Origin: an uncultured virus (IMG/VR IMGVR_UViG_3300032280_000373)
Lineage: Duplodnaviria > Heunggongvirae > Uroviricota > Caudoviricetes
DNA: 64,000 bases
IMG/VR virus record: IMGVR_UViG_3300032280_000373
Strand: one strand, 5' to 3'
Shown here: positions 3,506-62,604 of the stretch, piece after piece
Layout: every line of letters starts with the position of its first letter
How positions within the stretch are numbered: position 1 is the first letter of the stretch
Made by a program: the position numbers and the translations under genes
The notes under the pieces: model-generated
Databases searched by the model: none
What the model was told of the DNA's origin: nothing
What the model saw: the letters and a program-made list of their open reading frames with translations, nothing else

Positions 3506-5245
3506 TTAGACACTAAGGAAGGAAGATTCGGAAACAGCCTGGTCAAGTTTACGGGCTTGCTCCTGCCAAGTAGACCTTAACTTGCCCCCGACTAAGGAGC
3601 CGGCATGAATGCCCAGCTTTTGTCTAGCCAGATCAAGACCTAAGAAGAAGGCATCGGCCAAGTCGGGGGACTTCCCCAAGCGTAACTTGTAATCTCTTTT
3701 GGGCTCTACTGTAACCTTTCCGCCGGCGGTTGTATTATATTTTCTCCCAGTCATTTCTTTGGCTAAATCTGGTACAATTCCTTTTAACTGCCCAGACCTC
3801 ATATACTCTACCCCGGAAAACCAAAGTTCCGTAACTCGGTTTGTATACTTGTCTACACCTCGAATTGGGTTTGTAACGCTTACCGGTAGTAAGGAAGCTT
3901 TTTCTCCAAACTTAATTCGAAGTATTCGATTTGACCATATTTCAGATAAGATGTCACAAAAGGGATCTCCGGCACCAGTGGCGTCGATAGCCACTCTTTC
4001 AGGGGGAATCCCGGATTCTTGGCAAATTCGCATGACTTCTTTTGCAATCTGGAAATTCCGTGGCTCAGGTTTAGTAACGTCTTCGCGAAGACTGTGGAAC
4101 TTATGAAGCGCTACTGCTGGACCGGATTCTTCGCTTTGCCCATACTTGAGGATAGCTAGCACCGATCTATCCCCTCCGTTTGTGAATGCAGGGTCGAATC
4201 CAGCCAGGTAAAGCGGAGGGTGCGACCATCTTGGTTCTTTTGTAACATCGTATTTCCTGAAGTCTGCTTCCGAATAAATACCCTCTTCAGCTCCTACTGG
4301 TGCTGGAAAGCTTCGTATAAATCGCCAAAACGAAAGTGAGTTTTCCCCCTCGTTGTCGATAGCGTACTTAACTTGCTTCGAGGTCAACAAGAATGGCCAT
4401 TTATCATCGTGCTCGATATTTGGAGTTTTGATACCGTCAAGGTGAATACACTTACCAGATTTTGTTTCCCACTCTTCAGAATCTACCGTAACCGAGTTCC
4501 ACCCATCTTTGGGTGTGGAAAAAACTCCGAATGGATCGTATTGAGAATTAAAGTTTCCTAAGGCTACGCATTGAAATTGTGGGTTCGCGTTTAGGTTTGA
4601 GATGGCTTCAAACACCGAATTGGTTACGTCGGTTGCCTCATCGATAATCAAGAACACTCTCTTATTTTTTAGACCAATAAGTTTTGCTGTGGCTTCCTTT
4701 TCTTTATCTGGGCTCGATGGGACCAAGGTAATCGAAGACCGATCGGAAGCTTCTCCGGATTCGGATGCGTCAAGTACGATCTTGCCCATAGAATCTACTA
4801 ACTTTCCCGGAAGTCCTGGTACTTGCATATATCTCTCGCGGATAGAACCCCATAGACGTTTACGAGCTTCTCGAACGCTGGTGGTCGTGACAAGAACAAG
4901 GGTTTCATGCGGAGCACAAAGCCAATTAACTAATCCCCACATAGCCATTGTGGAAGTTTTGGCAGAAGACTTTGGCCCGGAAATGGCTAAATAGTTTTCT
5001 TCACAAGCACGTTCAATCATCCAATCAGCCCAAGGATGCCAATGAAACCCATTCTTGTTTTTAGTTTTGTGGTAAGGCCAAAGCAGATTGACCACATTCT
5101 TAAAATGTTGAGCCTTGCCCAAACCTCCATCCTCGGGTCTTAACCCAAGTTTAAAAGCGAGCAATTCAATGTCGAGGTCTCCGGCTCCATCTGGCCAGGA
5201 CTTTCCATATTTTTCTATAGGCAAGGAACTACTCTGCATAATCAC
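3506..5245 (-). CDS. terL: Terminase large subunit
   Basis: Walker A GPKSSAKT, Walker B LIIDEA, RNase H-like nuclease motifs GFDPA, AIDATG and SPDLADA. The start may be TTG 5224. Confidence 0.93.
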   Translation of the reverse strand: MIMQSSSLPIEKYGKSWPDGAGDLDIELLAFKLGLRPEDGGLGKAQHFKNVVNLLWPYHKTKNKNGFHWHPWADWMIERACEENYLAISGPKSSAKTSTMAMWGLVNWLCAPHETLVLVTTTSVREARKRLWGSIRERYMQVPGLPGKLVDSMGKIVLDASESGEASDRSSITLVPSSPDKEKEATAKLIGLKNKRVFLIIDEATDVTNSVFEAISNLNANPQFQCVALGNFNSQYDPFGVFSTPKDGWNSVTVDSEEWETKSGKCIHLDGIKTPNIEHDDKWPFLLTSKQVKYAIDNEGENSLSFWRFIRSFPAPVGAEEGIYSEADFRKYDVTKEPRWSHPPLYLAGFDPAFTNGGDRSVLAILKYGQSEESGPAVALHKFHSLREDVTKPEPRNFQIAKEVMRICQESGIPPERVAIDATGAGDPFCDILSEIWSNRILRIKFGEKASLLPVSVTNPIRGVDKYTNRVTELWFSGVEYMRSGQLKGIVPDLAKEMTGRKYNTTAGGKVTVEPKRDYKLRLGKSPDLADAFFLGLDLARQKLGIHAGSLVGGKLRSTWQEQARKLDQAVSESSFLSV

Positions 5246-10303: not shown

Positions 10304-10599
10304 TGCCTTCTGCCAGTGAACAACTGGCCGAAGAATTCACCGTGATTCCTTACCCATTCGTGGGTGAGCATCGCGCTGCAATCGAGGCTGAATATTCGGT
10401 TCTGCTTAACGGTGGTATAAAACCTACTGAAGTAGCCGATCTTATTTTTCATGCCTTGGAATTACTATTAAACAAAAGAAAAAAAGCAGAAGGAACGAAC
10501 ACTTACGATGAAACTACAACTCAAGTGGCGGATATGCTTGGGCGCTTGTTGGTTTTTGAAGAAATGTTCTCAAATAAAAAATACAAAAAATCAAAATGA
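10303..10599 (+). CDS. Hypothetical protein
   Basis: Coupled to the preceding gene and to the polymerase. Confidence 0.6.
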   Translation: MPSASEQLAEEFTVIPYPFVGEHRAAIEAEYSVLLNGGIKPTEVADLIFHALELLLNKRKKAEGTNTYDETTTQVADMLGRLLVFEEMFSNKKYKKSK

Positions 10600-12389
10600 A
10601 TACATATGCAATTGACTTTGAAACATATTACGACAAGGAGACATCAATCACAACGCTTGGGCAGTGGCATTATTTGCGGAGCCCGGCGTCAGACATTTAC
10701 ATGGTCGCCATTCAGGGGCCGGATGTTGACTACGTAGGCTGCCCTAAAAAAGCTCCATGGGCAAAGATTGATGGCCACAAATGGGTAGCTCATAACTACA
10801 GCTTTGACGGCGCGGTGATCGAGAGGTTGCGGGAGCAGGCATGCGTTCAAGAATCCAAGCCTGTAGCTTGGGACTGCACCGCAAACCTTTCGGTTGCCGT
10901 GGGTGCGCCAAGGAATTTGTTGGGCGCTTCTAGGGAACTTCTTGGAAGGACTATCGACAAGGACCCTCGGGATAAGATGCACTCCAAGAAGTGGAGCGAT
11001 GTGGAGGGTACTGAGTTTGGAAAAGAAGTACTGGAATATGCTCGCCAGGACGCCAAGGCATGTCTTGGTATTTACGAGAAGTTTTCCAAGGACATGCTTC
11101 CAGCGGAAGCTGAACTATCCAAGCACACGATTGAGATGGGATGGCGTGGAATTCAGGTCGACCAGGATGCTGTTGCCGCGGGCATTAAGGCTCTTCAAAA
11201 AGTAACTTGGGAGAGTGAGAACTCACTACCCTGGATCGACGAGACAGATGGAGTAGTTTTATCAACGAAGGCATTCCGTAGGGAATGCGCCAAGGCTGGA
11301 ATACCTTGGCCTACCTCACTGGCTGAGAATTCTGAAGAGTGTGCTTTGTGGGAATCTCAGTACGGAGAGAAGGTCCCATTTGTCGGTATCATGCGTGACT
11401 GGCGCAAGGCAAACTCTTTGCTTGCCAAGCTAAAGGTAATGCAGGGTCGAATCAGGCCGGACGGTACGATGGGTTACGGATTGAAGTATATGGGCGCTCA
11501 TACTGGGCGTTGGTCTGGTGACTCCAAGTTTAACGTTCAGAATCTTCCTCGAAATGAAATGTTCGGGGTAGACCTAAGAGGTTGTATTATTCCGCGCCCA
11601 GGGAAGAAGTTTGTTATCTGTGACTTGGCTCAGATTGAACCGCGGGTTCTTGCGTGGTTGTCCGGCAACGACGGACTCTTAGGGGCAATCAGAAATGGCT
11701 ATGGCATCTACGAGGCGGCGGCTAAGAACATGAGTTTATGGGATGGCCCGAAAGGGACATTGAAAAAGACTGATGCTCCGTTGTACCAGTTGGTGAAAGC
11801 TATGGTGCTTGGTCTTGGCTATGGCGCGGGCGCTAAGAAGTTCGCGCTGATCGCCAAGATGCAATACGGAATCGACATGACTGAAACTAAATCAACTATG
11901 ATCGTCAATGATTTCCGTACTAGGAATCAACCGATCCTTGGTTTGTGGCGTAAGTTGGAAGGCGACTTCCAGCGGGCAAAAGCGGATAAACAGTTAGAGG
12001 TTGGCTTGCCAAGTGGTCGAGTGCTCACTTACCGTAACATTATGTCTCAATGGCCAGACAAGCAGAAATATGACAAAAGTGGTAAGGCTAGGAAAGCGGC
12101 TTGGACAGCTAGCGTGGAGAGAGGTGGGCCTCAGATTCCTTTCTACGGAGGGAAGCTATGCGAGAACCTTGTTCAGGCTGTAGCTCGCGACGTCATGGGC
12201 GCGGCGGTATTGCGTTTGGAAAAAGCTGGTTGCCCCGTTGTGATGCACATTCACGACGAAGCTGTTTGCGAAGTTGACAATTCAGTTCCGGCTGGTGAGA
12301 TTGAACGTCTCATGAGCGTCTGTCCTGAATGGTTGGATGGGTGTCCAATAGGTGCAGAGGCAACGGATGCAGTGAGGTACAAAAAATGA
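10596..12389 (+). CDS. polA: Family A DNA polymerase with 3'-5' exonuclease
   Basis: ExoI DFET, ExoII AHNYSFD, ExoIII YARQD; HTGRWSG; motif A DLAQIEPR, motif B KAMVLGLGYG, motif C HIHDE. Confidence 0.95.
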   Translation: MNTYAIDFETYYDKETSITTLGQWHYLRSPASDIYMVAIQGPDVDYVGCPKKAPWAKIDGHKWVAHNYSFDGAVIERLREQACVQESKPVAWDCTANLSVAVGAPRNLLGASRELLGRTIDKDPRDKMHSKKWSDVEGTEFGKEVLEYARQDAKACLGIYEKFSKDMLPAEAELSKHTIEMGWRGIQVDQDAVAAGIKALQKVTWESENSLPWIDETDGVVLSTKAFRRECAKAGIPWPTSLAENSEECALWESQYGEKVPFVGIMRDWRKANSLLAKLKVMQGRIRPDGTMGYGLKYMGAHTGRWSGDSKFNVQNLPRNEMFGVDLRGCIIPRPGKKFVICDLAQIEPRVLAWLSGNDGLLGAIRNGYGIYEAAAKNMSLWDGPKGTLKKTDAPLYQLVKAMVLGLGYGAGAKKFALIAKMQYGIDMTETKSTMIVNDFRTRNQPILGLWRKLEGDFQRAKADKQLEVGLPSGRVLTYRNIMSQWPDKQKYDKSGKARKAAWTASVERGGPQIPFYGGKLCENLVQAVARDVMGAAVLRLEKAGCPVVMHIHDEAVCEVDNSVPAGEIERLMSVCPEWLDGCPIGAEATDAVRYKK

Positions 12390-14515
12390 ACCTCTTTCGT
12401 ATACCTAATTTATCGTCGTCGATTGCCAGTCCATGCACACCTTGGGATGGTAATGTAAACCAGCCACCGAGTCTTGAGCCAGAAGTTGCAAAGCGTTGGG
12501 CCGTTCAGAATTCAACTGACGGAATGTTCGTCAGCGGATTCGAAGGTCGTGCCGCGGCTATGCGTGTTACCAGAGATAATCCCCCGGCGAAGATGCATGC
12601 GTTCATTGCAGATTATGATTGTGAACTTACATCTGAAGAGTTTATCTCTGGGGTTGGGGCTAAAGCCAAAGCTGGATTAAAACCTATGTACGCTCACCGT
12701 ACTCCGAGTGGAGGTGCGCGGGTAATCTGGATGTTTGAGACTCCAATGCAGATTCCGGTTGGTCTATTGCCGGCGTTCTTAAAGCGAGTCGCTAAAGAGT
12801 TGGGGGCAAAGCGTTTGTTTGCTGGACTTGATGACAATCATATTAAGCCCGAGCAGTATTACGCTTGGTACTTGCCAATGACCAAAGTAGGGGATGTCCC
12901 TTTAAGGACAGAGACCTTGTACAGTTGGTTTGCTTCGACGATCGACGCCGACCACAAGTACCGCGGGGAAGGCCCCGTTGAGATCCCGATGGATCGTGTA
13001 CGTAATCGCGTACAGGAAATGTACCCTGACAAGTTGCTGGGGAATCTCGAAGTCAACGGCAGAACCAATGCGTTCTGGACTGCGACTTCAGATAACCCGA
13101 CAGCCTGTGTGGTCACTCCTACCGGTATAGTCAGCTTCTCGCAGGACAAGAGTTTTTATAGCTGGGCTGAAATCCTCGGAGCTGGCTGGGTCAAAGAGTT
13201 TGAGGAGGATCGTCTAGGCGCACCTCTGGCCAACTACTACTTCGACGGAAAGCGATACTGGAGGCAAGACGGTCGTGGCATCTGGCGCGATACAGACTCC
13301 GAGACTACCCGCAAGGATATTGCTGGTATCTACGGACTGTCTCTTGCTCCAATGCAACGGGGTGGAATGTGCGAAGTCGACCAGACTGTTTTGCGCGTGC
13401 GCGAAACACGACGGGTTGACGATGCTGGCCCAATTCTGTTTAGCAAAGAGGAAGTAGTCCACATGGGTGGGCGTACCGTTCTCAACATCTCGCGGGTAAA
13501 GGTTCTGGAACCAAGATCGGAGCCTTGCGAGAAGTGGGGAGATGGATTCCCTTGGATTGCAAAGTTCCTAGATGGGTTCTTTGACCCGCATGATTCCCTC
13601 CAGTATTTCCTGGCGTGGCTTCATCACTTCTACGTATCTGCCAAGTCGGGTAAACAATCTCAGGGGCAGGCGATCTTTATCGCCGGCCCGGTGGGAGTGG
13701 GTAAGACTCTCATGGGGACTCAGATTGTGTCCAGGCTAATGGGCGGTGGTTGCGATGCCTCGGGTCACATCTCCGGGGAGAGTGAGTTCAACTCGGAAAT
13801 GTTCGAGGTGGGCGTACTCAACGTCGACGATACTATCGCATCCACGAGCCACGAAAAACACTTGCTCTTCTCCAATACGGTGAAGAAGTTTGTTGCCAAT
13901 CGTCGCCATCGTTACCGCGCCATGTGGAAAAATCCTGCGACCATAGAGTGGTCGGGTAGGGTATTCGTCACGCTCAACGACGATCCAGACTCTATGCGGG
14001 CGGTTCCATACACAGACGCGAGTATCTTGGACAAGCTTATGCTGTTTAAGGCGTCGTCCAAAGGTATGGACTTTCCCCATTCTCAGGAACTACAGCGTAT
14101 CCTAGACGGGGAGCTCCCAGCGTTTGCCAGATGGTTGACTGACTTTGAGATTCCGGAAGAGCTTAAGTGCTCCAATCGGTTTCAGGTTAAGTGCTACCAC
14201 CATGCCGATATCTTGGAGGATACCCGGACCACCCATCCTAACCACGCTTTCTCGGAGTTGCTGGACGAATTTCTTATCGGGTTCAACCAAGCCAATCCAA
14301 AGGAGAAAACATGGAAGGGTTCAGCTACCCAGCTACTTAACCAGATGCTGAATGACCAGAGCCTTACCAATCTTACTCGCCATTATGCCTCTACACCGGA
14401 GAAAATGGGCCAGCGGTTGGCAAAGCTAATGACGACTAAGGGTATTGAGCGGGTGACGATCCAGGGCAAGGTGCTCTGGAAAATCCCGGTTGACGACGTT
14501 AAACCGGCTGTTTAA
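12386..14515 (+). CDS. Primase-helicase (primase-like N-terminus, SF3/DUF5906-like ATPase)
   Basis: FIADYD and RTPSGG in the N-terminus; Walker A GPVGVGKT, SEFNSEM, NVDD, VTLN; ATGA overlap with the polymerase. Confidence 0.8.
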   Translation: MNLFRIPNLSSSIASPCTPWDGNVNQPPSLEPEVAKRWAVQNSTDGMFVSGFEGRAAAMRVTRDNPPAKMHAFIADYDCELTSEEFISGVGAKAKAGLKPMYAHRTPSGGARVIWMFETPMQIPVGLLPAFLKRVAKELGAKRLFAGLDDNHIKPEQYYAWYLPMTKVGDVPLRTETLYSWFASTIDADHKYRGEGPVEIPMDRVRNRVQEMYPDKLLGNLEVNGRTNAFWTATSDNPTACVVTPTGIVSFSQDKSFYSWAEILGAGWVKEFEEDRLGAPLANYYFDGKRYWRQDGRGIWRDTDSETTRKDIAGIYGLSLAPMQRGGMCEVDQTVLRVRETRRVDDAGPILFSKEEVVHMGGRTVLNISRVKVLEPRSEPCEKWGDGFPWIAKFLDGFFDPHDSLQYFLAWLHHFYVSAKSGKQSQGQAIFIAGPVGVGKTLMGTQIVSRLMGGGCDASGHISGESEFNSEMFEVGVLNVDDTIASTSHEKHLLFSNTVKKFVANRRHRYRAMWKNPATIEWSGRVFVTLNDDPDSMRAVPYTDASILDKLMLFKASSKGMDFPHSQELQRILDGELPAFARWLTDFEIPEELKCSNRFQVKCYHHADILEDTRTTHPNHAFSELLDEFLIGFNQANPKEKTWKGSATQLLNQMLNDQSLTNLTRHYASTPEKMGQRLAKLMTTKGIERVTIQGKVLWKIPVDDVKPAV

Positions 14516-14542: not shown

Positions 14543-14947
14543 ATGAGAAATATAGTCATAGCCATAGCTATGCTCTTCTCGATCCCAACGTTGGCTTCCA
14601 ATGTGATGATTGAGAAAGAGCCTAAGAAGCCTGCCAAGAAAATCAAGGTTAGGCTCACAGCCTATTGGTGTGGCCAAGACCCCGATACCTCAAGGTTCAA
14701 ATCCTCGACGGGGTATACCTTGAAATCTGGCAGGACATGCGCTGTCGACCCTAGAATCATACCGTATGGCAGTACCGTAATTATTGACGGCAAGGAGTTC
14801 AAAGCGATCGATACGGGTACGGCAGTTATTGCCAAAAAAGCGTCACACGGTAAGCTTCCTGTTGTGGATCTCTTTTACAAAACAGAGCGTCAGGCTATGG
14901 TTGCGCTGGGCAATATGCCAATGCATCCATGGGTGGAGATTCGATAA
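14543..14947 (+). CDS. 3D-domain (peptidoglycan lytic transglycosylase-like) protein with signal peptide
   Basis: LTAY...CAVDPRIIPYGS...AIDTG...VDLF (three Asp); hydrophobic N-terminus MRNIVIAIAMLFSIPTLAS. Confidence 0.85.
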   Translation: MRNIVIAIAMLFSIPTLASNVMIEKEPKKPAKKIKVRLTAYWCGQDPDTSRFKSSTGYTLKSGRTCAVDPRIIPYGSTVIIDGKEFKAIDTGTAVIAKKASHGKLPVVDLFYKTERQAMVALGNMPMHPWVEIR

Positions 14948-14948
14948 T

Positions 14949-15332
14949 ATGGCAGCTAGTGCGCTTCTGTCATGCGATTGTAAAGATTGCAGTACTTGTT
15001 CATGTTGTCTCACTGGTTTTGATACAAGAACCGATTCTTACGATGGGGATATAGAGGCTTGTCCATATGCCTTAATTGTTAAAACAGACAATAAAGCGCC
15101 GATTGATGGGATGTACGCTTGTAACGGTTTCAGAGACGATAAAGCTACAGTATCTTGGCCTAGTGGGTCAAAAGTTTTTGAAACAGGGGATCCGCAAAGG
15201 CCATGCGCCGGAACTGGTAGCTGGAGTGTAGACGTTAGCCTTAAAAAAGATGATATAGTAACATGCCGCGCTCAATCTTGGGGAGGGCCCATCACTTGTA
15301 GAATTTCATGTTGCATAATTAAAGCTCCATGA
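14949..15332 (+). CDS. Cysteine-rich protein (13 Cys in 127 aa)
   Basis: MAASALLSCDCKDCSTCSCC...CRISCC; ATG immediately after the 3D gene stop; ATGA overlap with the Erv gene. Confidence 0.7.
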   Translation: MAASALLSCDCKDCSTCSCCLTGFDTRTDSYDGDIEACPYALIVKTDNKAPIDGMYACNGFRDDKATVSWPSGSKVFETGDPQRPCAGTGSWSVDVSLKKDDIVTCRAQSWGGPITCRISCCIIKAP

Positions 15333-15778
15333 AAACAAGATTTTATTTAAAATCAATTATAGATAATATTCCGTATAGACCAAAAGAATACTATAACGAA
15401 GTAATTTCAGCTGGTAAAATAATCGATGATTACCTGGAGTTGGATATAGAGGAAGCGAAAAAATTAATTAAGAAATATCATGAAAAAAATCCAGCTGAAG
15501 GCAAGCTTCATACTGCGGTAGAGTGGGGCCCGGTATTGTGGGGGGAGCTTCATAAGCGAACAGATGAATACATCGGGGAAGAAGAAAAAGAAAGGCGCTG
15601 GTTACAAATATTTACTTCGTGGATACCATGCGGAGAATGTAAATCTCATTGGGTTGGGTTAACTAAAGAAAATCCGGTTGATCTATCTTCTAAAAATAAC
15701 TACAGAGACTGGGCAATTCGTATGCATAATAAAGTCAATGAAAGACTAAATAAACCAATCTATGAACCAGCCGGCTAA
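15329..15778 (+). CDS. Erv1/ALR-family FAD-linked sulfhydryl oxidase
   Basis: WGPVLWGELH (G-x3-W-x3-H), IPCGECKSH (redox CxxC) and WAIRMHNKVNERLNKP (W-x3-HN-x2-N). Confidence 0.9.
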   Translation: MKTRFYLKSIIDNIPYRPKEYYNEVISAGKIIDDYLELDIEEAKKLIKKYHEKNPAEGKLHTAVEWGPVLWGELHKRTDEYIGEEEKERRWLQIFTSWIPCGECKSHWVGLTKENPVDLSSKNNYRDWAIRMHNKVNERLNKPIYEPAG

Positions 15779-15998
15779 CTTTGCCAAATCTATGGCTATG
15801 TGGGCGGGCTCTGGGTTCAAAAAGGTCCAGCAACATGTCTATGAGAAGCGTCTTGCCATCTGCCGTAAGTGCCAGTTCTGGCAAGAGAACGGTAACCTGG
15901 GTATGGGAAAGTGCTTGAAATGTGGATGCGGAAAGGGTAAACATTGGTTGCCGCACGAGCAATGTCCAATTGGTCTGTGGGGCAAAGAGAATACATGA
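15762..15998 (+). CDS. Small CxxC protein (DUF6171-like)
   Basis: YEKRLAICRKC...CLKCGC...CPIGLW. Confidence 0.7.
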   Translation: MNQPANFAKSMAMWAGSGFKKVQQHVYEKRLAICRKCQFWQENGNLGMGKCLKCGCGKGKHWLPHEQCPIGLWGKENT

Positions 15999-16309: not shown

Positions 16310-17257
16310 ATGTGTATTTTTAGCCGTGGTTTGGTTTCGGTGTTGGGAATATTTGCGGTCGTTCTTTCGTCGTCACTAAACGCATCGCCAGCTCTATTTG
16401 ATTCGGTTGTACGTATTGTTGCAAACAACCCTGAAAAACAATCCAGCAAACGCGGCGCCGGCGTAGCCATCGAAAACGGTTACATCTTATCGGCGTTTCA
16501 CGTAGTAGAGGGATGCCAGGATATCGAGGTCATCATGGGTGATGGCGATAACTCAGTTTGCTACGACGGGGAGCTGGTAGCCAAGGACGAACTCATCGAC
16601 ATCTGCCTGATCAAGATCCGCGGGGGCGACGGTATGTTTGTAAAGTTACCCGCGGTAAAGTTTTGTGATCAGTTTCCTATCCAAGCCGGGACGAGGGTCT
16701 ATGCCATTGGTAACCCTATGGGCTTTACCCGTACTGTCACGGAGGGAATCGTCAGCGCGTCAGGCAAGAACAAGGGCCAAAACTACATCCTTACCGATGC
16801 CTTGATCAAGGAAGGCAACTCTGGCGGCCCGCTGGTGGACCAGCAGGGGCAGTTGCTGGGCGTAGTCACCTCAACCATGGAAACTGGTACCCCAACTCAA
16901 CCGGTAAAAGCTGACCCCACCAGACCTATGGGCTACGTTGTGTCGGTACAGGATCTGAAGGACTTTATAGCCAATCATGGCAAACCCTCCAATGGAGTGC
17001 TTGGAATCAACGGAAACACCGTTAAAACGGGCTTATCGTCCTTTCAGTCAGAGGAAGGCTTCCAGGTCACCAAAGTCCTCAGGCCATGCGGCCTGGAGCG
17101 AATGGACATCATTATGATGATCGAGGACACCCAGGTCTCAAGCTTCCAGGACGTGGTACGTATAGTGAGACCGCGTGTACACGGTGATACCCTCAAAGCC
17201 TACGTTATAAGAGACGGTTGCTATAAGGAAGTAACTCTAAAAGTATTTGATAGATAG
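16310..17257 (+). CDS. HtrA/DegP-like trypsin serine protease with PDZ domain
   Basis: ILSAFHVV (His), DICLIKI (Asp), GNSGGPL (Ser), AIGNPMG; C-terminal PDZ-like LGING...GLERMDII; hydrophobic N-terminus. Confidence 0.9.
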   Translation: MCIFSRGLVSVLGIFAVVLSSSLNASPALFDSVVRIVANNPEKQSSKRGAGVAIENGYILSAFHVVEGCQDIEVIMGDGDNSVCYDGELVAKDELIDICLIKIRGGDGMFVKLPAVKFCDQFPIQAGTRVYAIGNPMGFTRTVTEGIVSASGKNKGQNYILTDALIKEGNSGGPLVDQQGQLLGVVTSTMETGTPTQPVKADPTRPMGYVVSVQDLKDFIANHGKPSNGVLGINGNTVKTGLSSFQSEEGFQVTKVLRPCGLERMDIIMMIEDTQVSSFQDVVRIVRPRVHGDTLKAYVIRDGCYKEVTLKVFDR

Positions 17258-17285
17258 GTGGAAGCACTTCTGCTTTCAGCAAAGA

Positions 17286-17692
17286 GACTTACGGAAGGTA
17301 CATGTATTAGTCGTAAGTCCTTGATGCAGTGATAGGGTGGGGGTATGAAACGATGGTATAATTGTTCTATGTGCTTGAGTATTAGGATTCTATGCTTCAA
17401 AGGGTGGTAGGGTGGGGGGTGTAGGGGTGGTTTTGAACTCGTTGTTCCTACAGCTTTGTGTGTGCGGCGTGTGTGTGCAAACACCCGGAACGAGTTGGGA
17501 TACCCCCACCCAGTGGGACCACCCCCACCCTCTCTTTCTTTATATTTATATATATTAATAATAAACATATACTTACACAAGGACCCAAGGTTCAAAATTT
17601 GGGTGGGGGTACCCATTTTTGACCCCCCACCCTAGGGGACACCCCCACCCTAAATCGTAGCCCCTTGGGGATAAATTAGCCCTTTGGGGCTA
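17286..17692. repeat. GGGTGGGGG iteron array around an AT-rich tract; candidate replication origin
   Basis: About seven copies of GGGTGGGGG or CCCCCACCC in both orientations, an AT-rich tract at ~17536-17575, and inverted repeat GACTTACG/CGTAAGTC. Confidence 0.65.
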
Positions 17693-18172: not shown

Positions 18173-18802
18173 ATGTCCACCCTGAACGAAGACATTCCAA
18201 GTTTTAAAGGGATGGTAAGAAAGTCCTTCTTCACCAAAGATCAGACAGACCGAAACGAGTTTTACAACGTATACGTATTTGCTTTGCAGTCCTGCCCCGG
18301 GACGATTCTAACTTTCCACATCATGACCGATTCAGGGATGCTTCGAAGCCGAGTCCCTATGTCTGAGATCTACACGCAAGAGCCCACTAATGATATCCCG
18401 TTTAATTACAAACAGCTTTGGGATTGCTTCTCTGAAAACGTGACCGTAATCGACTACAGCTTCTTAGCCTACCACCGCGCCCAGATTGTTTTGAGGGATG
18501 GCTCCAAGGTGTGGGGCACGTATATGTTCACCGTTGATTGGTACAATAATCCTTACTCGGACGAACCTTCCGATTACAAGTGCGGGCACGTCTTCGCCGC
18601 AGACGACGGATACTTGCTTTGCATGCCGAACAATCGAATCTTCTGGAGAGACTCCAACTGGGTTACCAAGAAGCTTCCGGAGAATCTCAAACAATTTAAG
18701 GTGGACACCGAGCTACCTTCTGTGGAGAATCAGTCCGACAGATGGGTAACAGAAGACACAGACTCGTTTTACTACGACATTAAAGAAAGAGAGACAACGT
18801 GA
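18173..18802 (+). CDS. Conserved phage hypothetical protein
   Basis: LNEDIP...QLWDCFS...YMFTVDW...KCGHV...PNNRI, a pattern I recognise from aquatic phage proteins; TAATG start at 18173. Confidence 0.7.
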   Translation: MSTLNEDIPSFKGMVRKSFFTKDQTDRNEFYNVYVFALQSCPGTILTFHIMTDSGMLRSRVPMSEIYTQEPTNDIPFNYKQLWDCFSENVTVIDYSFLAYHRAQIVLRDGSKVWGTYMFTVDWYNNPYSDEPSDYKCGHVFAADDGYLLCMPNNRIFWRDSNWVTKKLPENLKQFKVDTELPSVENQSDRWVTEDTDSFYYDIKERETT

Positions 18803-19509
18803 ATATACCAGACCTAGGAATGAAAATGAGAAGCGTAATGATTTTGACACCGGCCTATGGTGGCATTGTCACCGCTGGGTTCCACAGATCTTTGCTGACC
18901 TCGACGATTGAACTACTCGCGGAGGGTATCGCGCTTGAATCCGAGATTCTTGAAAACCAATCCCTGCTACCCCTTGCCCGCAACACATTGCTCAACGAAG
19001 CCTACAAACGTAAACCCGACGACATTATCTGGATTGATACCGACATGGTTTGGGAGCCCGATACTTTGCGCAGACTGCTCAAACATGATGTTGATGTGGT
19101 TGGTTCTGCCTGCCGCAAGAAGATTCCGGACAATGTTCAGTTCAACTTTCAACTCTTCAAAGAAAAATCCTTCGAGCCAGATGAAAAGGGTTTGATCGAG
19201 GTTCGTCGCCTTGGTACCGGATTCCTTCGGATGAGCCGCAAGGCTTACACCCACTTGTGGGAGAACGATAAGAAGTACGAGGTGCAGGGCGTAATGGGAT
19301 CGAACGTGTTTGAGATCGGTATCTGGCAAGGCCGCGAGCTTTTATCGGAGGACTTTATTGTTTGTGAGAAGCTGATCCAACACGGTTTCAAGATCTTCAT
19401 GGACCCTGAACTGACTGTCGGTCACGTCGGCACGTTTAACTACTGGGCCGACGTAAAGGACTTTTTCAAACGTTTGAAAGAACAGACCAATGATCAGCGA
19501 AAATCTTGA
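18799..19509 (+). CDS. GT-A fold glycosyltransferase
   Basis: ILTPAYG, ARN, IIWIDTD (DxD), GTGFL, LSEDF, VGHVG. Confidence 0.8.
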   Translation: MNIPDLGMKMRSVMILTPAYGGIVTAGFHRSLLTSTIELLAEGIALESEILENQSLLPLARNTLLNEAYKRKPDDIIWIDTDMVWEPDTLRRLLKHDVDVVGSACRKKIPDNVQFNFQLFKEKSFEPDEKGLIEVRRLGTGFLRMSRKAYTHLWENDKKYEVQGVMGSNVFEIGIWQGRELLSEDFIVCEKLIQHGFKIFMDPELTVGHVGTFNYWADVKDFFKRLKEQTNDQRKS

Positions 19510-20176
19510 GATCTTAATCTCGGTTTTGCACCCTACCCGCCGATGCAGCGAAGCATTGGCCCGCAAGCAGGGATGGATGGACATGGCCGCCAAGCCAGAA
19601 TCGATTGAGTGGATCTTTGGCATTGATGAGGGCGATACTTCATGCAATCCCCTCAAAGAACATGACCACGTAGTTGTCCCGCCCCCGACCTGGGATGTAT
19701 CCAAGGAAGGTGGCACACTTTGCCTAGCGATGAATATGATGGCCGAGAAAGCCAAAGGCGAATTGCTTTTCCAAATGGCCGACGATTGGTTTGGCCCCTA
19801 CCACTGGGATGCCTGGTTTCTCGAAGTGATGTCCGCCCATATGTATGAGCCCAAGATGCTGACTCTGCCAGACCACCCGGGGAGACCCGCGGGCTTTGAC
19901 CTTTGCTGCTTCCCCCTGATTACCCGCAAGCTTTACGAAAAGAACGGCCATTTCTATTACCCCGAGTACCGCCACGTTTACGTGGATACCGACATTTCAT
20001 TGCGAACGAGACGGTTTGGCCAGCGAGTGGATGTTCCCGTTATCCCGGGGTTCTTCCACGACCACCCGTTTTTGACCGGCAAATCCTCCGACGAGGTTTA
20101 CAACCGGGCAAACTCCAAACCAGCATACGAATACGGCGAAGCCATATACAAGAAAAGAAACGGACATCTGCTGTGA
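19490..20176 (+). CDS. GT2-like glycosyltransferase
   Basis: ISVLHPTRR, GELLFQMADD, YVDTD, HDHP. Confidence 0.75.
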   Translation: MISENLEILISVLHPTRRCSEALARKQGWMDMAAKPESIEWIFGIDEGDTSCNPLKEHDHVVVPPPTWDVSKEGGTLCLAMNMMAEKAKGELLFQMADDWFGPYHWDAWFLEVMSAHMYEPKMLTLPDHPGRPAGFDLCCFPLITRKLYEKNGHFYYPEYRHVYVDTDISLRTRRFGQRVDVPVIPGFFHDHPFLTGKSSDEVYNRANSKPAYEYGEAIYKKRNGHLL

Positions 20177-20664
20177 TACTTTATGATTTAGGGGCAAGAA
20201 CAGGGGAAGCTTTAAGCCTTCTTGACACATCCAAGTATTCCAAAATAATCGGTTACGAAGCCAATCCAGAAATAAAGGATATTCCTCCGGGCTACACAGA
20301 ATGGGTGAAGGCGGCTGCATGGACTCACGACGGGACCGTCAAGTTCATATCCGGGGATGGACTATCCGATTGTTCGGGTATTGAAGGGTACAATTGCATT
20401 TACTCACGTTCTATATCCTCCCGCGTCAACGAAATCCCCTGCGTTGACTTTCCAAAAGTTGTTTCTGAAAATGGATTGTGCGATGTGAAGATTGATATTG
20501 AGGGCGCCGAATGGGTATTGGTTCCGGCTTTAATTCCCCTTGCCAGTTTAATTAAGAATCTATACATTGAGTGGCACCATGGCGACAAAGGAAATCCAGA
20601 AACAGCAGAAGACCTTACGGCAAAGCTGAAAGCCGGGGGCGTCACTGTTCACCAATGGTTTTAA
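20173..20664 (+). CDS. FkbM-family methyltransferase
   Basis: YDLGARTG, YEAN, AAW, KIDIEGAE, IEWH; GTGA overlap start. Confidence 0.85.
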   Translation: MILYDLGARTGEALSLLDTSKYSKIIGYEANPEIKDIPPGYTEWVKAAAWTHDGTVKFISGDGLSDCSGIEGYNCIYSRSISSRVNEIPCVDFPKVVSENGLCDVKIDIEGAEWVLVPALIPLASLIKNLYIEWHHGDKGNPETAEDLTAKLKAGGVTVHQWF

Positions 20665-20668
20665 TTTT

Positions 20669-21256
20669 ATGACAAAAAGACCCTCACTCAGTATCCTTGT
20701 TGGCACAACGACCAAGCGGCCGGAGCAGTGCAAGAAACTAGTCGACTTCCTTTGCGCCCAGATCGAGGAAGCCAAACGCGATGACGTCGAAGTAATTTGG
20801 CTAGGTGACAATTTGAAATGCTCGTCCGGCCTAAAGCGCCAGCGCTTGCTTGCCTGTGCGATCGGCAAATACCTCGCCTACGTGGACGATGACGATTGGG
20901 TAAGCGATGACTACGTCAAAGAGATCACCAACGCGATCGACAACCATCAGGTCGACGTTATTACATTCCGCCAAAAGGTGAACCTCGACGGCCAGGAAGC
21001 GGAAGTAAACTTCCAGCTTGGGTACGAAACGGTTGAACCCTGGACCGGTCAGAATATGACTCGCCCGCCCTACCACGTTTGCGTGTGGGAAACGATGCTT
21101 GCCAAGTCAGCCCAGTTCTCCGACCAGTACTATGGCGAGGATGTGTTCTGGCTCCAGCAGCTTTGGCCGAAAGCCAAGACCAGCCACCATATCAACAAGG
21201 TATTGCACCACTACATTTGGTCATCCAGCGGGACTCTCTGCCAACCTGGAACCTGA
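20669..21256 (+). CDS. GT2-family glycosyltransferase
   Basis: LSILV, GLKRQ, GKYLAYVDDDD, GED. Confidence 0.85.
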   Translation: MTKRPSLSILVGTTTKRPEQCKKLVDFLCAQIEEAKRDDVEVIWLGDNLKCSSGLKRQRLLACAIGKYLAYVDDDDWVSDDYVKEITNAIDNHQVDVITFRQKVNLDGQEAEVNFQLGYETVEPWTGQNMTRPPYHVCVWETMLAKSAQFSDQYYGEDVFWLQQLWPKAKTSHHINKVLHHYIWSSSGTLCQPGT

Positions 21257-21258
21257 TT

Positions 21259-21861
21259 ATGTACTCACAGAATGACGAGGAGCGGGTAATCCTCAACTAT
21301 TTTGACGGGAAGCCCGCGGGGACTTTCTTGGATATAGGTGCGTATAGCCCGAAGAAATTCTCAAATACCAGAGCTTTGTTTGAGCGGGGGTTCAAGGGAG
21401 TCTTTATTGAGCCTTCCCCGTCTCTTCATCAGGCTTTCCTGGACGAGATCAAGGACGATCCTAAGATGCAGTTGATTACCGATTGCCTCGGACCCAACGC
21501 CGGCGAAGTGGAATTCTACGATTCCGGCGAGTGGGCCCTATCAACAACCGATCCAGAGTGGGTTGAAAAGAGAAAAGGTTGCGGCGCGACATTTACTAAG
21601 ATTAAGGTCAATATGATTACTGTCCCCATGCTCCTTGAAAAGGCAATCCACAAGACGTTCGACTTTATTTCGCTTGACACTGAAAACACCGTAAAGGTGA
21701 TTCTACCTTTGCTCGATCTAAACGCCCTAAATACTTCTTTGATTTGCGTTGAGTGGAACAGCCAAGACTTTGCTTTCTTTGACGACACACTTCGCGCCCA
21801 GGGATTTGTTGAAATTGACGGCTCGCGTACCGGCGAGAATCTGATTTACTCCAAAAAATAA
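21259..21861 (+). CDS. FkbM-family methyltransferase
   Basis: MYSQNDEE, FLDIGA, SNT, IEP, FDFISLDTE. Confidence 0.85.
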   Translation: MYSQNDEERVILNYFDGKPAGTFLDIGAYSPKKFSNTRALFERGFKGVFIEPSPSLHQAFLDEIKDDPKMQLITDCLGPNAGEVEFYDSGEWALSTTDPEWVEKRKGCGATFTKIKVNMITVPMLLEKAIHKTFDFISLDTENTVKVILPLLDLNALNTSLICVEWNSQDFAFFDDTLRAQGFVEIDGSRTGENLIYSKK

Positions 21862-40560: not shown

Positions 40561-43500
40561 TTACTGTTTCAACCCCTGTTGTTTTTGCATCCGTTCTAGT
40601 TGAGTTCTCATCAATGCGGCTTTCTTGATCGGGTTGGTAACACGGGAAACAATTTCGCGAATTACGTTGGGGTCTTCGGTGTTTAGGATAAGATTGAAGA
40701 TGCGGGGATTGGACAGCACCTTAACCATGTCGGGTCCAGCGAGCTGCATCCAGTCGTACTTTTCCTCTCCGCTCAAACGCTTACCAAGGAACACGGCATT
40801 GCTCAACTCACGCTGGGCTTGTCCCGGGGCAATTGATCCGCTTGCGATCTTGTCCTGAACTTCCTTAACTGCGATATCGGAAAGGGAACTTGGACTCCAG
40901 TCAATGCCCACTCGCTTCGCTGCGAGCAACGCGAATACTCGCTCCTCGGGATCGGCAGAATTGATATCCGCTCCGAGTGAGAATGCCCGCTTGGCCAATG
41001 GAATACCGCGGAGCAATGGAACTTTGATAGGAGTTCCAAGCATCGTAAGATCGGGTCGGGCGATCTTATCTGCTCCAGGGATGGAGGTGGCGAAAGGGAT
41101 ACTGCGCAGGAACGCAGAAGTAATTCCGACTTGGGCAGGTTTACCAGAAGGAGTCTGCATCAAACCGTCGAGCGTTGATTCCAAATCTCGCAAGGTTGCG
41201 TAGGCCGGCACGAAAGTAGTGGCTCCGAGATTGCCGACGAAATCCGAGAACGCCTTGAGTCTTCCCTCTGCACTTTGCTGTTGGGGATAAGCGGCATTAA
41301 ATACTCGCTTGAGTCCGTTCATAAAGGCGAGGTCAAGGAAGCCGAAGCCAACCATCGGGAGGGCAGCCGCGGCCGCAGTGGTCAAAGCTTCTGCATCGCT
41401 ACGCTTAGAGTAACGCTGGGCTTCTACAACGATACCGAGAGGCATAAGGAATCCAACCATACCGAAAGGTAGAGTTTCCCAACTGATAAACTTTGCGTTG
41501 CCGCTTTTGAAAGATCCGATCTGGATGGAGCGACCGCGACCTCCGGCCGCTCGGAAAGCCTTGGCTTGAGCGGGATCGTCTGGGCCATTGTAATGAATCA
41601 TGAATATAGGATCGTCTTCGCGATCAGGTCCCCATGCTCCAGCCGAGCGGAGAACAGCGAGTAGGATTGCGAAAGCTGCATGGCCGAGAACCACCTTGCC
41701 AACTTGGATATTGTAGGCGTTGGTTCCGGGGGTAGGAGCTTCGGTGCGGAACTTAGAACCTTTCTCGGTAAGAGTTCCGGCTCCGACAAGCAGACGCTTC
41801 AAGCTCCAAGCGGGAATCCAGTTAAGACTTTCGTTGGTCAAACTGCTGGCAGTCTTCAAGAACTTAAAGATTGTTCGGGCCGACCAGTGGTTGGTTCTGG
41901 CAAAGGTTTGCAGACCGCTCAACACGCGGCCAATCGATCCTTCGAAATCGTTGGTGAAGGTGGAACGCTTGGCATACTGGGTCGCAAGATCGGTCAACTG
42001 CTGGCCAGCCTGATCTCGGCCCTGCTCCATAATCTCCTCGACACGCATAGCTTTTTGGAACGGGTTGAGGTTAAATCTTTCAGCTTCTTCTTCAGCCTGA
42101 GCGATTGCCATATTCCTAGCCTCCGGGGTGTAGTTCAACAAGCGCATGGCTTCGGCATCCAGTTCGGCTGGGTCGGAATACTTCTGGCCCGCCAAGCGGT
42201 AAGCTTCGGCAATTTCCATGGCCTTCTTTGCGCCGAGTTTATTGAAGGCGTCACCCATCGCCATGGCTTGGCTAACCCACACAGGAGGAGAGAGGAGAGA
42301 ATCGACAACTTTACCGGTTGCCGTGAAGGGGTTAAGAGGTAGGGAAAACTTCAGGCCAAACGGAAGGTTGATTTCTTGGTATGCGTCTTCGATACTTAGC
42401 TTACCTTTGCGGACGTTATCGATCTTCTGCTTCATCGCCTGGAACATATTGACAGTGGAGTAATCACCGCTGGCCATGTCTTGAGCGGCGGACAAGTCAC
42501 CCTTGCGGATAACATTCATGGCATCCCACGCAAGACCTTCACCACCCATCCACTTGGGCAGAGCGACTTGGAAGAGTCTGGCGATACCATTGAATCCTGC
42601 TTTGCCAGCCGCCGTGTTGCCGAACAATCCCTCAACGCCGTTGGTCAAAGCCATCAAGCCGACGTCAGTAAGAACTTGAACAGTACCCCCGTAGGTGTTG
42701 ACGCCAAGGGTACTGACAGACGCCAGCAAGTTAAAGGTTTGGAAATCCACAAGCATGTCACCCCATGCGATCGGAGCCGAAGTTTTAATGAACCCGAGCA
42801 GATCATTCAATGCCTGCTGACGTAGCATACCTTCGGGGCGACGGGCAAGATTCTTAACTCTTTTATCGATCTCGGCTCTCACCTCTGCTGTAATCTCCGG
42901 CAACCCAATGGACTGACGGATCATGCTAAACAGTTCGTCATCACGCAGTGCGCCCAAGTTAGTCGCTTCAATCAAACGATCTAAGGCAGAACGAATCTTG
43001 CGTGTCTTCTTCTCCGCACGTTTTTCCATTCGCCGTTTGATGCTCTCGAGTTCACGGATACGTTCGAGTCTGATTGTTTCGCGGAGTGCGCCCATGAGAT
43101 AACGTTTGACCTTCTGCGTATCTTCGTCGGACAAATTAGTATCCTTGAGCATTGCATCTTGGAAGTTCTTACCAAACCGAACAACGTCTCCGTTGCTTTG
43201 GCGGATAAGGTTCTTGATATTCACCGACACTCCGCTTTGGATATTATCTTTGGAATTGAGCGCCGCCTTAAAGTCGGAAACAGTTAGAGGGAAATCCAAC
43301 GCTCCGTCGATCAAGGGCTCGAGGGCTTCAACCTGATCTTCCGTGTAGTCTGTACGCAAAGTTGAGATCGCCTGGTCCAAAGCCCTCTGGAAAAAGGGCA
43401 AGTTGGCAATACGTCCCTTGAACTTTTCTCCAGCTGTGGGGGGCGCGGGACGTTCGTATTTTTCTTGCAACCCACCAAGTCTCTTGATCTCCTGCCGAAT

Positions 43501-60799: not shown

Positions 60800-62604
60800 G
60801 AAGCCGCGGCGCGCGTTACAAATATGTTAATGGTTATATTCGTCGTAGTTGCACTAAAATCTGTGCTGCTCATATTAAAGAAAACAATCTTTACATAATT
60901 GGATACGCAATAAGCGCTAATCATAACTTTATCCGCAAAATTATTTTCCGAAGAAGAATAAGTAACTTGTGCGAAATCTCCAGAAAGTACATTTGGAAGA
61001 TAATGAGTATAGGTCTGGTAAGTTCCAGCTCCCGTAAGACTTCCAAGAGAATCTGTAGATTCTAATGAAACAGATCCTCTGTAAAGTTTTGTAATCTTGG
61101 CGGCTGATGTTTCTATTTGATAAGATGTTGCTTGGACGGCACCAGTAACATCCAATTCAAAATCTGGGGAAGCTTTTCTAATACCAACTCTATTGTTAGT
61201 GGAATTAACAACAAGTGTACTTGTATCTACAGTAAGATTACCGCTTATTGATGCATTACCGCTTATTGCTGCGTCTCCAGTAACATCTAAAGGAACTGCC
61301 GGAGTAGTATTATTGATTCCTACATATCCAGTATTCTTTACATACAAAACAGAAGTTGAATTTAACTCGCCAGTGATATTGGCAGACCCAGATACGGTAA
61401 GTGAAGAGGTAGGAGCGGTTGTATTTACCCCGACTCTATTTGATGAAGTATCGACAAATAATACTCCGGAATCAATATTAAGATTATTTGAAACTGCTAA
61501 AGTCGAATTCATCGTTGTAGCCCCAACAACATTTAAAGTAGAGCTTAACGTGGCTGCTCCGGAAACGAGTAGAGAACCTAGGATTGTAGAACCACTGACA
61601 TCCAAGGCAACAGTAGGTGTTTTATTAATACCAACAAAATTGTTGGAGGTATCGACCTTTAAAACGTTGGTATCGACTGACAAATCACCGCTTATGTTAG
61701 TAGCGCCAACAACATCCAGCTCAACTGCTGGGGTGGCTGTTTTAATCCCAACGCGATTTGTATTTGCATTTACATTTAAAAGGTCCGAACTGGATACTCC
61801 CCGCACTAGGAACGTAGAAGCTCCGCTAACTCCACCTGGGTTAACGAGAAAAGAGACAGCTTGGGCGGCTCCGTTTACATCCAACAATTTTTTAGGATCT
61901 GAAATTCCAATACCAACTCTATCGGAACTTGCAGACACAACAAGAGTGTTAGTAAAGTTGTCCGTCATAACTACAAAATCAGAATTATTTACTTGAGAGG
62001 AGTTAATGGTCGCGCCCAACCTAAATTCTGAAAGGCCCGCAACTCTAAAAGTTCCGCTAATATCGAGATCGGCTGCTGGGGATGACGTTTTAACCCCGAT
62101 CCTGTTTGTGCTACCTTTGGTATATAACAAATGAGTCTCGGTATCGGATTCTACTCTAAAGTCTACGGCAGCTCCACTTTCATTGACTACGGTTGGCCCG
62201 TTAAGAATAGAAGATCCGTTAACGGTAAGCGAGGAGAGAGGATCGGAATATGTAGCCCCGGCGGAAGGGGAAACTTTTAAACCCGCCGTAACTGAACCGG
62301 ATGGGTTTACCCCGGCTGCTCTTACTAGGGTGGCAGTAACCGATGTGTAAGGAGTTCCCCCGACAACGGTAACAGTATAAAAACCAGCACCGGAAATATA
62401 AATAGTTTGCCCCACTGCAATCCAGCGATTTTCAACTACGCTAAAAGTTATTGGGTCATTAACGGCCGGTTGGGGAAAATTAGCGGCTACTGTGGTAAAT
62501 GCATTGATACCGTTAGTGCCATTTGTACCATTCGATCCAGCAAGACCCTGCGGTCCCTGGACTCCGGCTTCTCCAACAACAAGTGTATTACAATCGCAGC
62601 TCAT
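60796..62604 (-). CDS. Tail fibre protein
   Basis: Short collagen-like GVQGPQGLAGSNGTNGTNG; repeated NRVGI.T..P...LDV.G shaft units; N-terminal MSCDC. Confidence 0.8.
   Translation of the reverse strand: MSCDCNTLVVGEAGVQGPQGLAGSNGTNGTNGINAFTTVAANFPQPAVNDPITFSVVENRWIAVGQTIYISGAGFYTVTVVGGTPYTSVTATLVRAAGVNPSGSVTAGLKVSPSAGATYSDPLSSLTVNGSSILNGPTVVNESGAAVDFRVESDTETHLLYTKGSTNRIGVKTSSPAADLDISGTFRVAGLSEFRLGATINSSQVNNSDFVVMTDNFTNTLVVSASSDRVGIGISDPKKLLDVNGAAQAVSFLVNPGGVSGASTFLVRGVSSSDLLNVNANTNRVGIKTATPAVELDVVGATNISGDLSVDTNVLKVDTSNNFVGINKTPTVALDVSGSTILGSLLVSGAATLSSTLNVVGATTMNSTLAVSNNLNIDSGVLFVDTSSNRVGVNTTAPTSSLTVSGSANITGELNSTSVLYVKNTGYVGINNTTPAVPLDVTGDAAISGNASISGNLTVDTSTLVVNSTNNRVGIRKASPDFELDVTGAVQATSYQIETSAAKITKLYRGSVSLESTDSLGSLTGAGTYQTYTHYLPNVLSGDFAQVTYSSSENNFADKVMISAYCVSNYVKIVFFNMSSTDFSATTTNITINIFVTRAAAS

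Follow-up and report, generated by a model that had tools for sequence, protein, structure and literature searches.

Where do the disulfides of phage particles come from, when these particles are built in a reducing cytoplasm? The question is raised by 64,000 nucleotides of DNA (hereafter the window) from an uncultured virus of the class Caudoviricetes (IMG/VR record IMGVR_UViG_3300032280_000373). In the window, which belongs to an uncultured tailed phage, a gene for a homolog of Erv/ALR sulfhydryl oxidases directly follows a gene for a cysteine-rich protein. Virus-encoded Erv oxidases have so far been described for large eukaryotic DNA viruses. An earlier note on this DNA, made from its letters alone, had proposed that the phage carries an oxidase and a relay with which it folds Cys-rich virion proteins. 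We found that the two genes form a conserved cassette that is exchanged as a unit, and we lean, with moderate confidence, towards the Erv protein being a dedicated oxidase for the jelly-roll protein with which it is transferred. The cassette would thus offer a testable system, made up of only two or three small genes, in which to study the origin of such disulfides. Its features are as follows.

14949..15332, plus strand: gene for the Cys-rich partner, 127 amino acids (aa) from the ATG at 14949, 13 Cys; proposed oxidase substrate (open reading frame (ORF), family hidden Markov model (HMM), AlphaFold2 (AF2) model)
15329..15778, plus strand: homolog of the Erv/ALR-family sulfhydryl oxidases linked to flavin adenine dinucleotide (FAD), 149 aa, 2 Cys only (PF04777, PDB profiles, AF2, Foldseek)
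15329..15496, plus strand: N-terminal alpha/beta domain of Erv, residues 1-56 (AF2, high confidence)
15629..15640, plus strand: codons of the active-site C101-G-E-C104, at the start of the third helix (homolog alignment; aligned with CGEC of Erv2)
15762..15998, plus strand: small DUF6171-like Cys protein, 78 aa, a backbone gene (phrog_13558; PF19668 below cut-off)
14949..15776, no strand assigned: exchangeable cassette (Cys-rich gene and Erv) in a hypervariable slot (breaks in DNA homology, identities, guanine-plus-cytosine (GC) content)

An Erv/ALR homolog in a tailed phage

The ORF at 15329-15778 encodes a genuine Erv/ALR homolog. The Pfam family Evr1_Alr (PF04777) matches residues 71-145 at E = 2.9e-14, with 53.6 bits against a cut-off of 27.6. 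In a PDB profile search with the protein and six close homologs, yeast Erv2 (1jr8) was the best match (2.4e-14), and further matches, down to E = 3.8e-5, were to plant Erv1 (AtErv1) and yeast Erv1, ALR, pB119L of African swine fever virus (ASFV) and mimivirus R596. The AF2 model, with a predicted local distance difference test (pLDDT) score of 92.8, has the four-helix Erv fold, with predicted helices at residues 63-79, 85-97, 102-114 and 122-139. When this model was submitted to Foldseek, the 11 top-ranked chains were all Erv enzymes, led by 3gwl, and the compact alignments to Erv enzymes gave target-normalised template modelling (TM) scores of 0.65-0.78 at root-mean-square deviations (rmsd) of 1.9-2.2 Å. 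The family assignment of the earlier note, made from signature motifs that are all present in the ORF, is thus borne out by HMM search and by predicted fold, and so is its reading of the protein as one without a signal peptide, there being by inspection no hydrophobic stretch at the N-terminus.

The active-site residues are under strict conservation. C101 and C104 are invariant in all seven members of the close set, which was gathered by a word-based protein search and includes the protein of the window itself, as well as in 45/45 wider aligned homologs. W71, H75 and H133 are likewise invariant in 45/45, and N134, V136 and N137 are at least 90% conserved. The W..H residues of the first helix and the H-N-x-V-N residues of the last align with the same residues in Erv2 and AtErv1; in the structures of Erv2 and ALR, these are residues that contact FAD. 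Yeast Erv2 (1jr8/1jra), the best match by sequence, is 34% identical in the structural alignment and has CGEC, W..H and HNKVN in common with the phage protein. The best structural match is ASFV pB119L (3gwl), with a Foldseek E-value of 8.6e-5, a target-normalised TM score of 0.75-0.78, an rmsd of 2.0 Å over 90-92 columns and 29% identity; it was also matched by PDB profile at 5.6e-13.

The cysteine content sets the phage protein apart from its cellular relatives. Cellular Erv enzymes, such as Erv2 with its C-terminal CGC, carry a shuttle Cys pair on a flexible arm, and the cysteines that flank HNxVN form a Cx16C structural disulfide in Erv2 and ALR. The phage protein, unlike cellular Erv2, Erv1 and ALR, has neither: the active-site pair makes up its cysteines, so no second redox pair was found, and in the profile alignment the two Erv2 cysteines flanking the HNxVN helix are missing. 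The CGC of the Erv2 arm occurs instead in the separate protein encoded just downstream. The two cysteines that flank HNxVN in Erv2 are absent from the aligned stretch of pB119L as well. We do not take a shuttle pair as a defining feature of the family, viral members also being without one (pB119L has the active-site CxxC only, and vaccinia E10R lacks a second shuttle pair too); its absence implies an external relay or direct access to the substrate. With only two cysteines in the Erv protein, a separate partner is therefore plausible.

In front of the Erv domain lies the additional N-terminal segment of about 55 residues that the earlier note had pointed out. The Pfam match begins only at residue 71 and the PDB profile matches at residues 57-65, and residues 1-50 are folded in the AF2 model. 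This domain is kept in the seven close homologs and was seen only in the phage clade; a sequence comparison with the PDB gave nothing convincing for it. It may be a docking module for the partner or for a relay.

A two-gene cassette in a hypervariable slot

We next consider the gene in front of Erv. An HMM of the partner family matched the ORF directly upstream of Erv in 7/7 close loci (the window and L001-L006, the latter scanned on one IMG/VR contig and five metagenome contigs) and had no other match in the 16 loci searched. In the window, the TGA of the partner gene overlaps the ATG of Erv at ATGA (15329-15332), and in L003 the ORF coordinates of the pair overlap in the same way. Erv and the Cys-rich gene are therefore a conserved two-gene cassette. 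The Pfam score and the fold match of Erv are far beyond chance, and so is the finding of the pair in 7/7 loci.

The partner has an N-terminal Cys cluster (CDC..C..C.CC) followed by an all-beta jelly-roll domain with the C-terminal end ..CC...AP. Across the seven loci, the domain follows the consensus Y.C.G..DD.G...W.GG...GPC.G...F....G...C.AGSWGG.V.C...CC...AP, and C58, C86, C106, C117 and C121 are its invariant cysteines. It occurs alone in a 74-aa protein (L005), behind a short N-terminal Cys cluster (window, L002 and L003) and at the C-terminus of larger proteins, one of 241 aa (L006) and one of 835 aa with 63 Cys (L001/G001). No Pfam family at E up to 0.1, no PHROG family and no PDB sequence matched the partner, and a profile search placed it in a family of 23 clusters, none with a Pfam domain on record and with names that go no further than 'hypothetical protein'. 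The AF2 model (pLDDT 84.7) is an all-beta fold with middling matches (Foldseek TM 0.4-0.55) to C1q/TNF-like heads, PRD1 P5 and phage C1q-domain or tail-fibre proteins. The best VIA fold match was zebrafish C1qA at Z 7.8, with many unrelated jelly-rolls at Z 6-7. We thus regard the partner as a predicted jelly-roll protein, do not file it as a member of the C1q family and take its likeness to fibre heads as a lead only. A further candidate identity, that of a lipoprotein or secreted protein, was dropped as inspection revealed no plausible signal or lipobox context.

The cassette lies in a slot bounded by a gene for a 3D-domain protein on the left and by the DUF6171-like gene on the right (window 14948-15777). 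DNA homology between the window and five IMG/VR relatives (L021-L025) ends at 14946-14948 and restarts at 15762-15777. Protein identities to L003 are 98.7% for the primase, 79.5% for the DUF6171-like protein and 88.9% for the next small protein (90 aa); those of the slot are 30.9% for the Cys-rich partner and 59.1% for Erv. GC content is 0.385-0.398 across 15000-15800 versus 0.48-0.54 in the flanks, as the AT-richness seen in the earlier note had indicated, and that of the Erv gene is 0.358 versus 0.478 for the whole window. The content of the slot differs in each of the relatives L021-L026, for example a protein of 166 aa with 13 Cys in L022, of 247 aa with 3 Cys in L024 and of 270 aa with 13 Cys in L026. 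A search of five whole sister records (four of them 98-100% complete) with PF04777 detected Erv in 0/5, and the same search recovered Erv in 3/3 records known to carry one. This shows that Erv was gained and lost along with the jelly-roll gene and that the pair is an exchangeable, dispensable unit. A CxC cluster near the N-terminus opens 5/9 slot variants (e.g. KRGCGC, KGCPCSC and KKCGCSC).

Surroundings of the pair vary between loci. In the window it sits among non-structural genes. Its neighbours in G001 and L006 are large or repeat-rich ORFs that are fibre-like by appearance, without a family match, and the Erv locus of L007 also contains genes for a head protease and a major head protein.

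Candidate functions of the cassette

How might the two proteins work together? In the reading that we favour, the cassette would encode a small jelly-roll protein that depends on disulfides, together with an Erv oxidase whose translation is coupled to it. The enzyme would serve one protein and not the whole virion, in a position like that of a tail-fibre assembly chaperone beside its fibre gene. Erv would bind FAD in its four-helix bundle, probably as a dimer by analogy with solved Erv enzymes. The C101/C104 pair would accept electrons from cysteines of the freshly synthesised partner in the bacterial cytoplasm, either directly or via the DUF6171-like protein as a relay, and the electrons would then pass to O2 to give H2O2; the N-terminal alpha/beta domain would probably hold the partner or the relay in place. 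The place of the protein in the Erv family, by sequence and by predicted fold, supports this reading, as do the strictly kept gene order, the overlap of the two genes, their exchange as one unit and the domain fusions. What we infer is that the protein binds FAD and is active as an oxidase, the direction in which electrons move, the role of the relay and the final location of the partner. For the production of disulfide-bonded proteins in bacteria, a minimal oxidase suited to their cytoplasm could be useful along with the substrate that it naturally serves.

Known systems offer partial parallels. Like ASFV pB119L, whose partners are pA151R and pE248R, the phage Erv is virus-encoded for use in a reducing cytoplasm, its activity being predicted. 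Unlike pB119L, it belongs to a tailed phage with a bacterial host and carries the extra 55-aa N-terminal alpha/beta domain, and its candidate partners (jelly-roll and DUF6171-like) match no Pfam family above cut-off. The logic proposed for the phage is that of the vaccinia E10R-A2.5L-G4L pathway, with a minimal viral Erv and small Cys-motif partners that make cytoplasmic disulfides; the poxvirus family Pox_E10 (PF04805) reached E = 0.066 on the phage Erv, with 13.5 bits against a cut-off of 27. In contrast to vaccinia, no thioredoxin-fold partner was seen among the genes scanned, the phage enzyme apparently has one dedicated partner and not a large set of virion membrane proteins, and sister phages do without the cassette. 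Cassettes of tail fibre and assembly chaperone (such as lambda or P2 Tfa and T4 gp38) likewise have a small gene just downstream of a protein with a variable C-terminus, and the two are swapped together. Unlike these chaperones, to which it has no relation in sequence or fold, the phage accessory protein is a redox flavoenzyme homolog, and its partner is only a candidate fibre or virion protein.

A more specific version of the favoured reading, which we offer tentatively and consider rather doubtful, makes the pair an 'oxidative fibre chaperone': a swappable cassette, in some tailed phages, of Erv and a disulfide-stapled, C1q-like receptor-binding head that would be oxidised in the reducing cytoplasm before lysis, with the DUF6171-like protein as relay. 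If true, disulfide formation would be a phage-encoded step of virion maturation linked to host range, and the DUF6171-like CxxC/CxxCGC domain, which many phages have, would be a thiol-relay module that had not been recognised as such.

The protein proposed as relay has its cysteines at C34xxC37, C51xxC54-G-C56 and C68 (in CP), and its gene overlaps Erv by 17 nucleotides, so that the earlier note was right in describing Erv as overlapping Cys-motif ORFs on both sides. It matches phrog_13558 at E = 2.4e-9 over 64/69 profile positions, and PF19668 (DUF6171) scores 21 bits, under its cut-off of 27; by these profile scores it belongs to the PHROG, and with regard to Pfam we call it no more than 'DUF6171-like'. 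Its closest Atlas clusters come from phages, mostly Uroviricota, and in one of them 42% of members are labelled DUF6171. A sequence search of the PDB gave nothing convincing for it. The link to Erv comes from fused proteins. In the metagenomic proteins P0010, P0011 and P0021, the DUF6171-like domain is fused C-terminal to Erv (P0010 and P0011 were in the training set of the DUF6171-like HMM, and P0021 is independent), and P0047 and P0068 have a degenerate version of the domain behind Erv. P0077 combines five tandem copies of the Erv N-terminal domain with a DUF6171-like domain, without an Erv domain, and the distant Erv proteins of L011 and L013 have an N-terminal CxxC...C...CP.GLF stretch that is similar to the DUF6171-like domain by eye. 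Taken at the level of sequence, the Erv/DUF6171-like fusions argue for a functional link, and the DUF6171-like protein may be a candidate thiol relay or adaptor for Erv. The CxxC/CxxCGC protein that the earlier note had pointed out downstream of Erv is thus linked to it, as far as the domain is concerned, by the fusions P0010, P0011 and P0021; its gene has turned out to belong to the phage backbone and not to the cassette.

Several observations weigh against the favoured reading. The DUF6171-like gene is without Erv (within 4 kb) in 34/35 IMG/VR loci, the sole locus with both being the L001 contig, where a DUF6734 gene stands between the two. In L004 and L005 a different gene lies just downstream of Erv, and the DUF6171-like HMM had no match on these short contigs of 1.1-1.4 kb; the adjacency of the DUF6171-like gene to Erv in the window may thus be positional. 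The co-divergence of Erv and the jelly-roll protein is weak (Spearman 0.39, p 0.08, from 21 non-independent locus pairs), and the Pearson value of 0.60 may be largely driven by the close L002/L003 pair, a clear outlier, so that co-divergence was dropped as an argument. Slot variants rich in Cys also exist without Erv (those of L022 and L026, with 13 Cys each), and therefore Cys-richness alone needs no Erv; some of the cysteines of these variants may bind metal instead. Finally, the jelly-roll family was found in 0/9 distant Erv loci, and L010, a 6.9-Mb chromosome of a metagenome-assembled genome (MAG), has no upstream partner on the same strand.

Other explanations of the locus differ in what the enzyme would act on. 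The earlier note had tied the oxidase to Cys-rich virion proteins, and a general cytoplasmic pathway of this kind, in which oxidase and relay act on many virion proteins as vaccinia E10R/A2.5L/G4L do, would be in keeping with a real Erv protein that has no signal peptide. It would also suit the virion of mycobacteriophage Jabs, for which a cryo-EM preprint of 2026 (10.64898/2026.07.24.740622) reports ~1,700 disulfides and leaves open whether host- or phage-encoded oxidoreductases are the source. In the window, a 644-aa virion protein has 12 Cys, and two tail-fibre-like ORFs on the minus strand have an N-terminal CDC like that of the partner, one (60796-62604) with CDC at residues 3-5 and then a collagen-like Gly-X-Y run, the other (62616-63614) with CDC at residues 13-15. 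CxC motifs were present in 4/40 ORFs examined, namely these two, the partner and the DUF6171-like protein. The structural ORFs are otherwise poor in Cys, with 1 in 4287 aa, none in those of 516, 353 and 448 aa, and 3 each in a 445-aa virion protein and the 602-aa fibre-like ORF, which makes a general virion-folding pathway unlikely. The large ORFs of G001 that are putative tail-fibre genes by appearance contain 0-0.5% Cys, as compared with 7.5% in the 835-aa protein adjacent to Erv; the exception is a 442-aa ORF (G001:51787-53115) with 16 Cys (3.6%), which may be a second possible client of the Erv of that phage. No homolog of the 602-aa fibre of the window was found in G001. In addition, the four Erv-less sisters that are 98-100% complete keep their fibre genes, and CDC is kept where recovered: the homolog of the 602-aa fibre has it in the three genomes with the full ORF, and the second fibre in two. 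A need of Erv for the N-terminal CDC of tail fibres was rejected on this ground. Of the earlier claim, the coupling to a Cys-rich protein therefore stands, on 7/7 synteny and the ATGA overlap, and its extension to Cys-rich virion proteins generally does not; we consider the general pathway improbable. We give an equally low probability to a host-directed role, as a redox weapon or counter-defence in which the oxidase hits host thiols (thioredoxin, glutathione or a defence protein) or makes H2O2, the slot being a hot spot of defence or counter-defence and the Cys-rich protein an effector or decoy. Such a role would fit a cassette that is dispensable in sister phages and placed among early or non-structural genes (polymerase and primase, then secreted 3D-domain and DegP-like proteins), in a slot whose gene differs in almost every relative, as in diversity hot spots. 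However, a host-directed oxidase has no need to travel with one Cys-rich fold, yet the pair is kept in 7/7 loci, and it is found beside putative fibre ORFs (G001 and L006) or head genes (L007).

The remaining two explanations concern the cysteines and the DNA itself. The flanking Cys proteins could bind metal (Zn or Fe-S) without being oxidised by Erv, which might then control how metal is released or work with an acceptor different from O2; we judge this quite unlikely. The CxxC...CxxC spacing of the DUF6171-like protein resembles a zinc ribbon, N-terminal CxC..C..CC clusters resemble metal sites, and Cys-rich slot variants without Erv exist. Weak matches to high-potential iron-sulfur protein (HiPIP)-like families were also obtained (E 0.05-0.23), but these are at chance level. 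Moreover, the strict pairing with Erv involves the jelly-roll domain and not the N-terminal cluster, and the five invariant cysteines of that domain lie on separate strands or loops of the predicted fold, which we read as more in keeping with structural disulfides than with a single metal site. As to the DNA, the marked AT-richness of the segment relative to its flanks could point to an artefact, be it an assembly chimera, a decayed gene or a fragment of a eukaryotic virus joined to a phage contig. Against this, the overlapping ORFs are intact, as are all catalytic motifs, the gene order is repeated in a further six loci (L001-L006), the proteins are on record in identical form from 2 contigs each and the junctions fall at gene boundaries. 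Since the same junctions recur in independent contigs and the slot is reused by other inserts in sister genomes, the segment is not an assembly chimera, a possibility that the earlier note had kept in view. An artefact is thus refuted as far as contig-level data allow, and we give it next to no weight.

The wider Erv family and the surrounding genes

Having examined the close loci, we turned to the distribution of the family. An Erv profile run against 1.84 billion representatives gave 7,672 matches at E<=0.001, of which 746 were at E<=1e-10; these 7,672 are expected to include cellular and giant-virus Ervs. The best 150 of the 7,672 matches are mostly short and have the common motifs WGP.LW.ELH and PPDLSS, with 64/150 of at most 160 aa and 38/150 with exactly 2 Cys. 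Ten representatives that were looked up had metagenome sources only, one being named 'FAD-linked sulfhydryl oxidase' and the others 'hypothetical protein' or unnamed. A tblastn search with the Erv of the window gave no match at E<=1e-3 in 50,697 deposited phage records, in which the only match to the high-GC homolog P0059 was a Mollivirus-like giant-virus record. PHROGs had no family for Erv, and no relative of the close clade turned up when GTDB species genomes were scanned by pattern. Full-text literature searches likewise brought up no paper on an Erv-family oxidase from a tailed phage, in agreement with the statement of the earlier note that it knew of no characterised example. PMC10598087 describes Erv1/Alr as a conserved oxygen-dependent enzyme of nucleocytoplasmic large DNA viruses, probably acquired from eukaryotic hosts.

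More distant relatives form a high-GC subclade, found on 4 MAG contigs of Tepidisphaeraceae and on 5 contigs of IMG/VR, one of which is classified as a provirus; the loci were scanned with a 10-sequence alignment of the subclade. A Cys-enriched ORF abuts the Erv start in 5/9 of these loci, with 31 Cys in 432 aa (L015), 10 in 203 (L011), 28 in 622 (L009), 14 in 345 (L008) and 6 in 197 (L007); L012-L014 (high GC) were left out of the neighbour count for ambiguous ORF calls. Some family members have additional domains. Erv is fused to glycosyltransferase-like domains in P0068 (GT9), P0047, L009:2837-4405 and L014:4482-6308, that of L009 being GT25-like and just below cut-off. P0014 and P0015 are tandem Erv-Erv proteins whose second domain lacks CxxC (IPDSD and IPDKE), a layout reminiscent of the pseudo-Erv and Erv arrangement of QSOX.

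The genes around the cassette were assigned by Pfam and PHROG scans, and two further features are listed here.

3506-5245, minus strand: large terminase (Pfam and PHROG scans)
14543..14947, plus strand: 3D-domain (MltA/RlpA-like) protein, left flank of the slot, backbone gene (PF06725, 29.2 bits against a cut-off of 23.8)

The same scans found a family A DNA polymerase (10596-12389), a DUF5906-type primase/helicase (12329-14515) and an RIIA-like protein, and by PHROG scan virion structural proteins are also encoded in the window. Among 2,092 deposited phage records that match the DNA polymerase, even the best is less than 30% identical to it, and the longest recorded contig with the Erv protein of the window has 70,699 bases. 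On the minus strand, 40561-53424 encodes the 4287-aa polyvalent protein with a single Cys, in which an AAA_34 helicase-like domain is above cut-off and ART-PolyVal just under it (29.2 versus 31.2 bits); given these polyvalent-protein domains, an N4-like phage with a giant virion RNA polymerase was rejected.

Two probably exported proteins flank the cassette. One is the 3D-domain protein (14543-14947), with a signal-like hydrophobic stretch at the N-terminus, which is 91.8% identical in L003 and also occurs in relatives without Erv. The other is a trypsin-like protease at 16310-17257 with a hydrophobic N-terminus and a PDZ match below cut-off (DegP-like), in place of which L003 has a shorter protease. 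A scan for promoters and terminators gave about the number expected from shuffled sequence, and no operon boundary was therefore drawn. Some 430 bases at 17237-17675 are kept at 87-93% in L003 and L022-L025 despite differing neighbour genes; they contain no convincing ORF (only a low-complexity frame on the minus strand), no tRNA and no Rfam match. A few kb downstream of the cassette (18799-21861), the window encodes a glycosyltransferase and an FkbM methyltransferase, and L003 does likewise.

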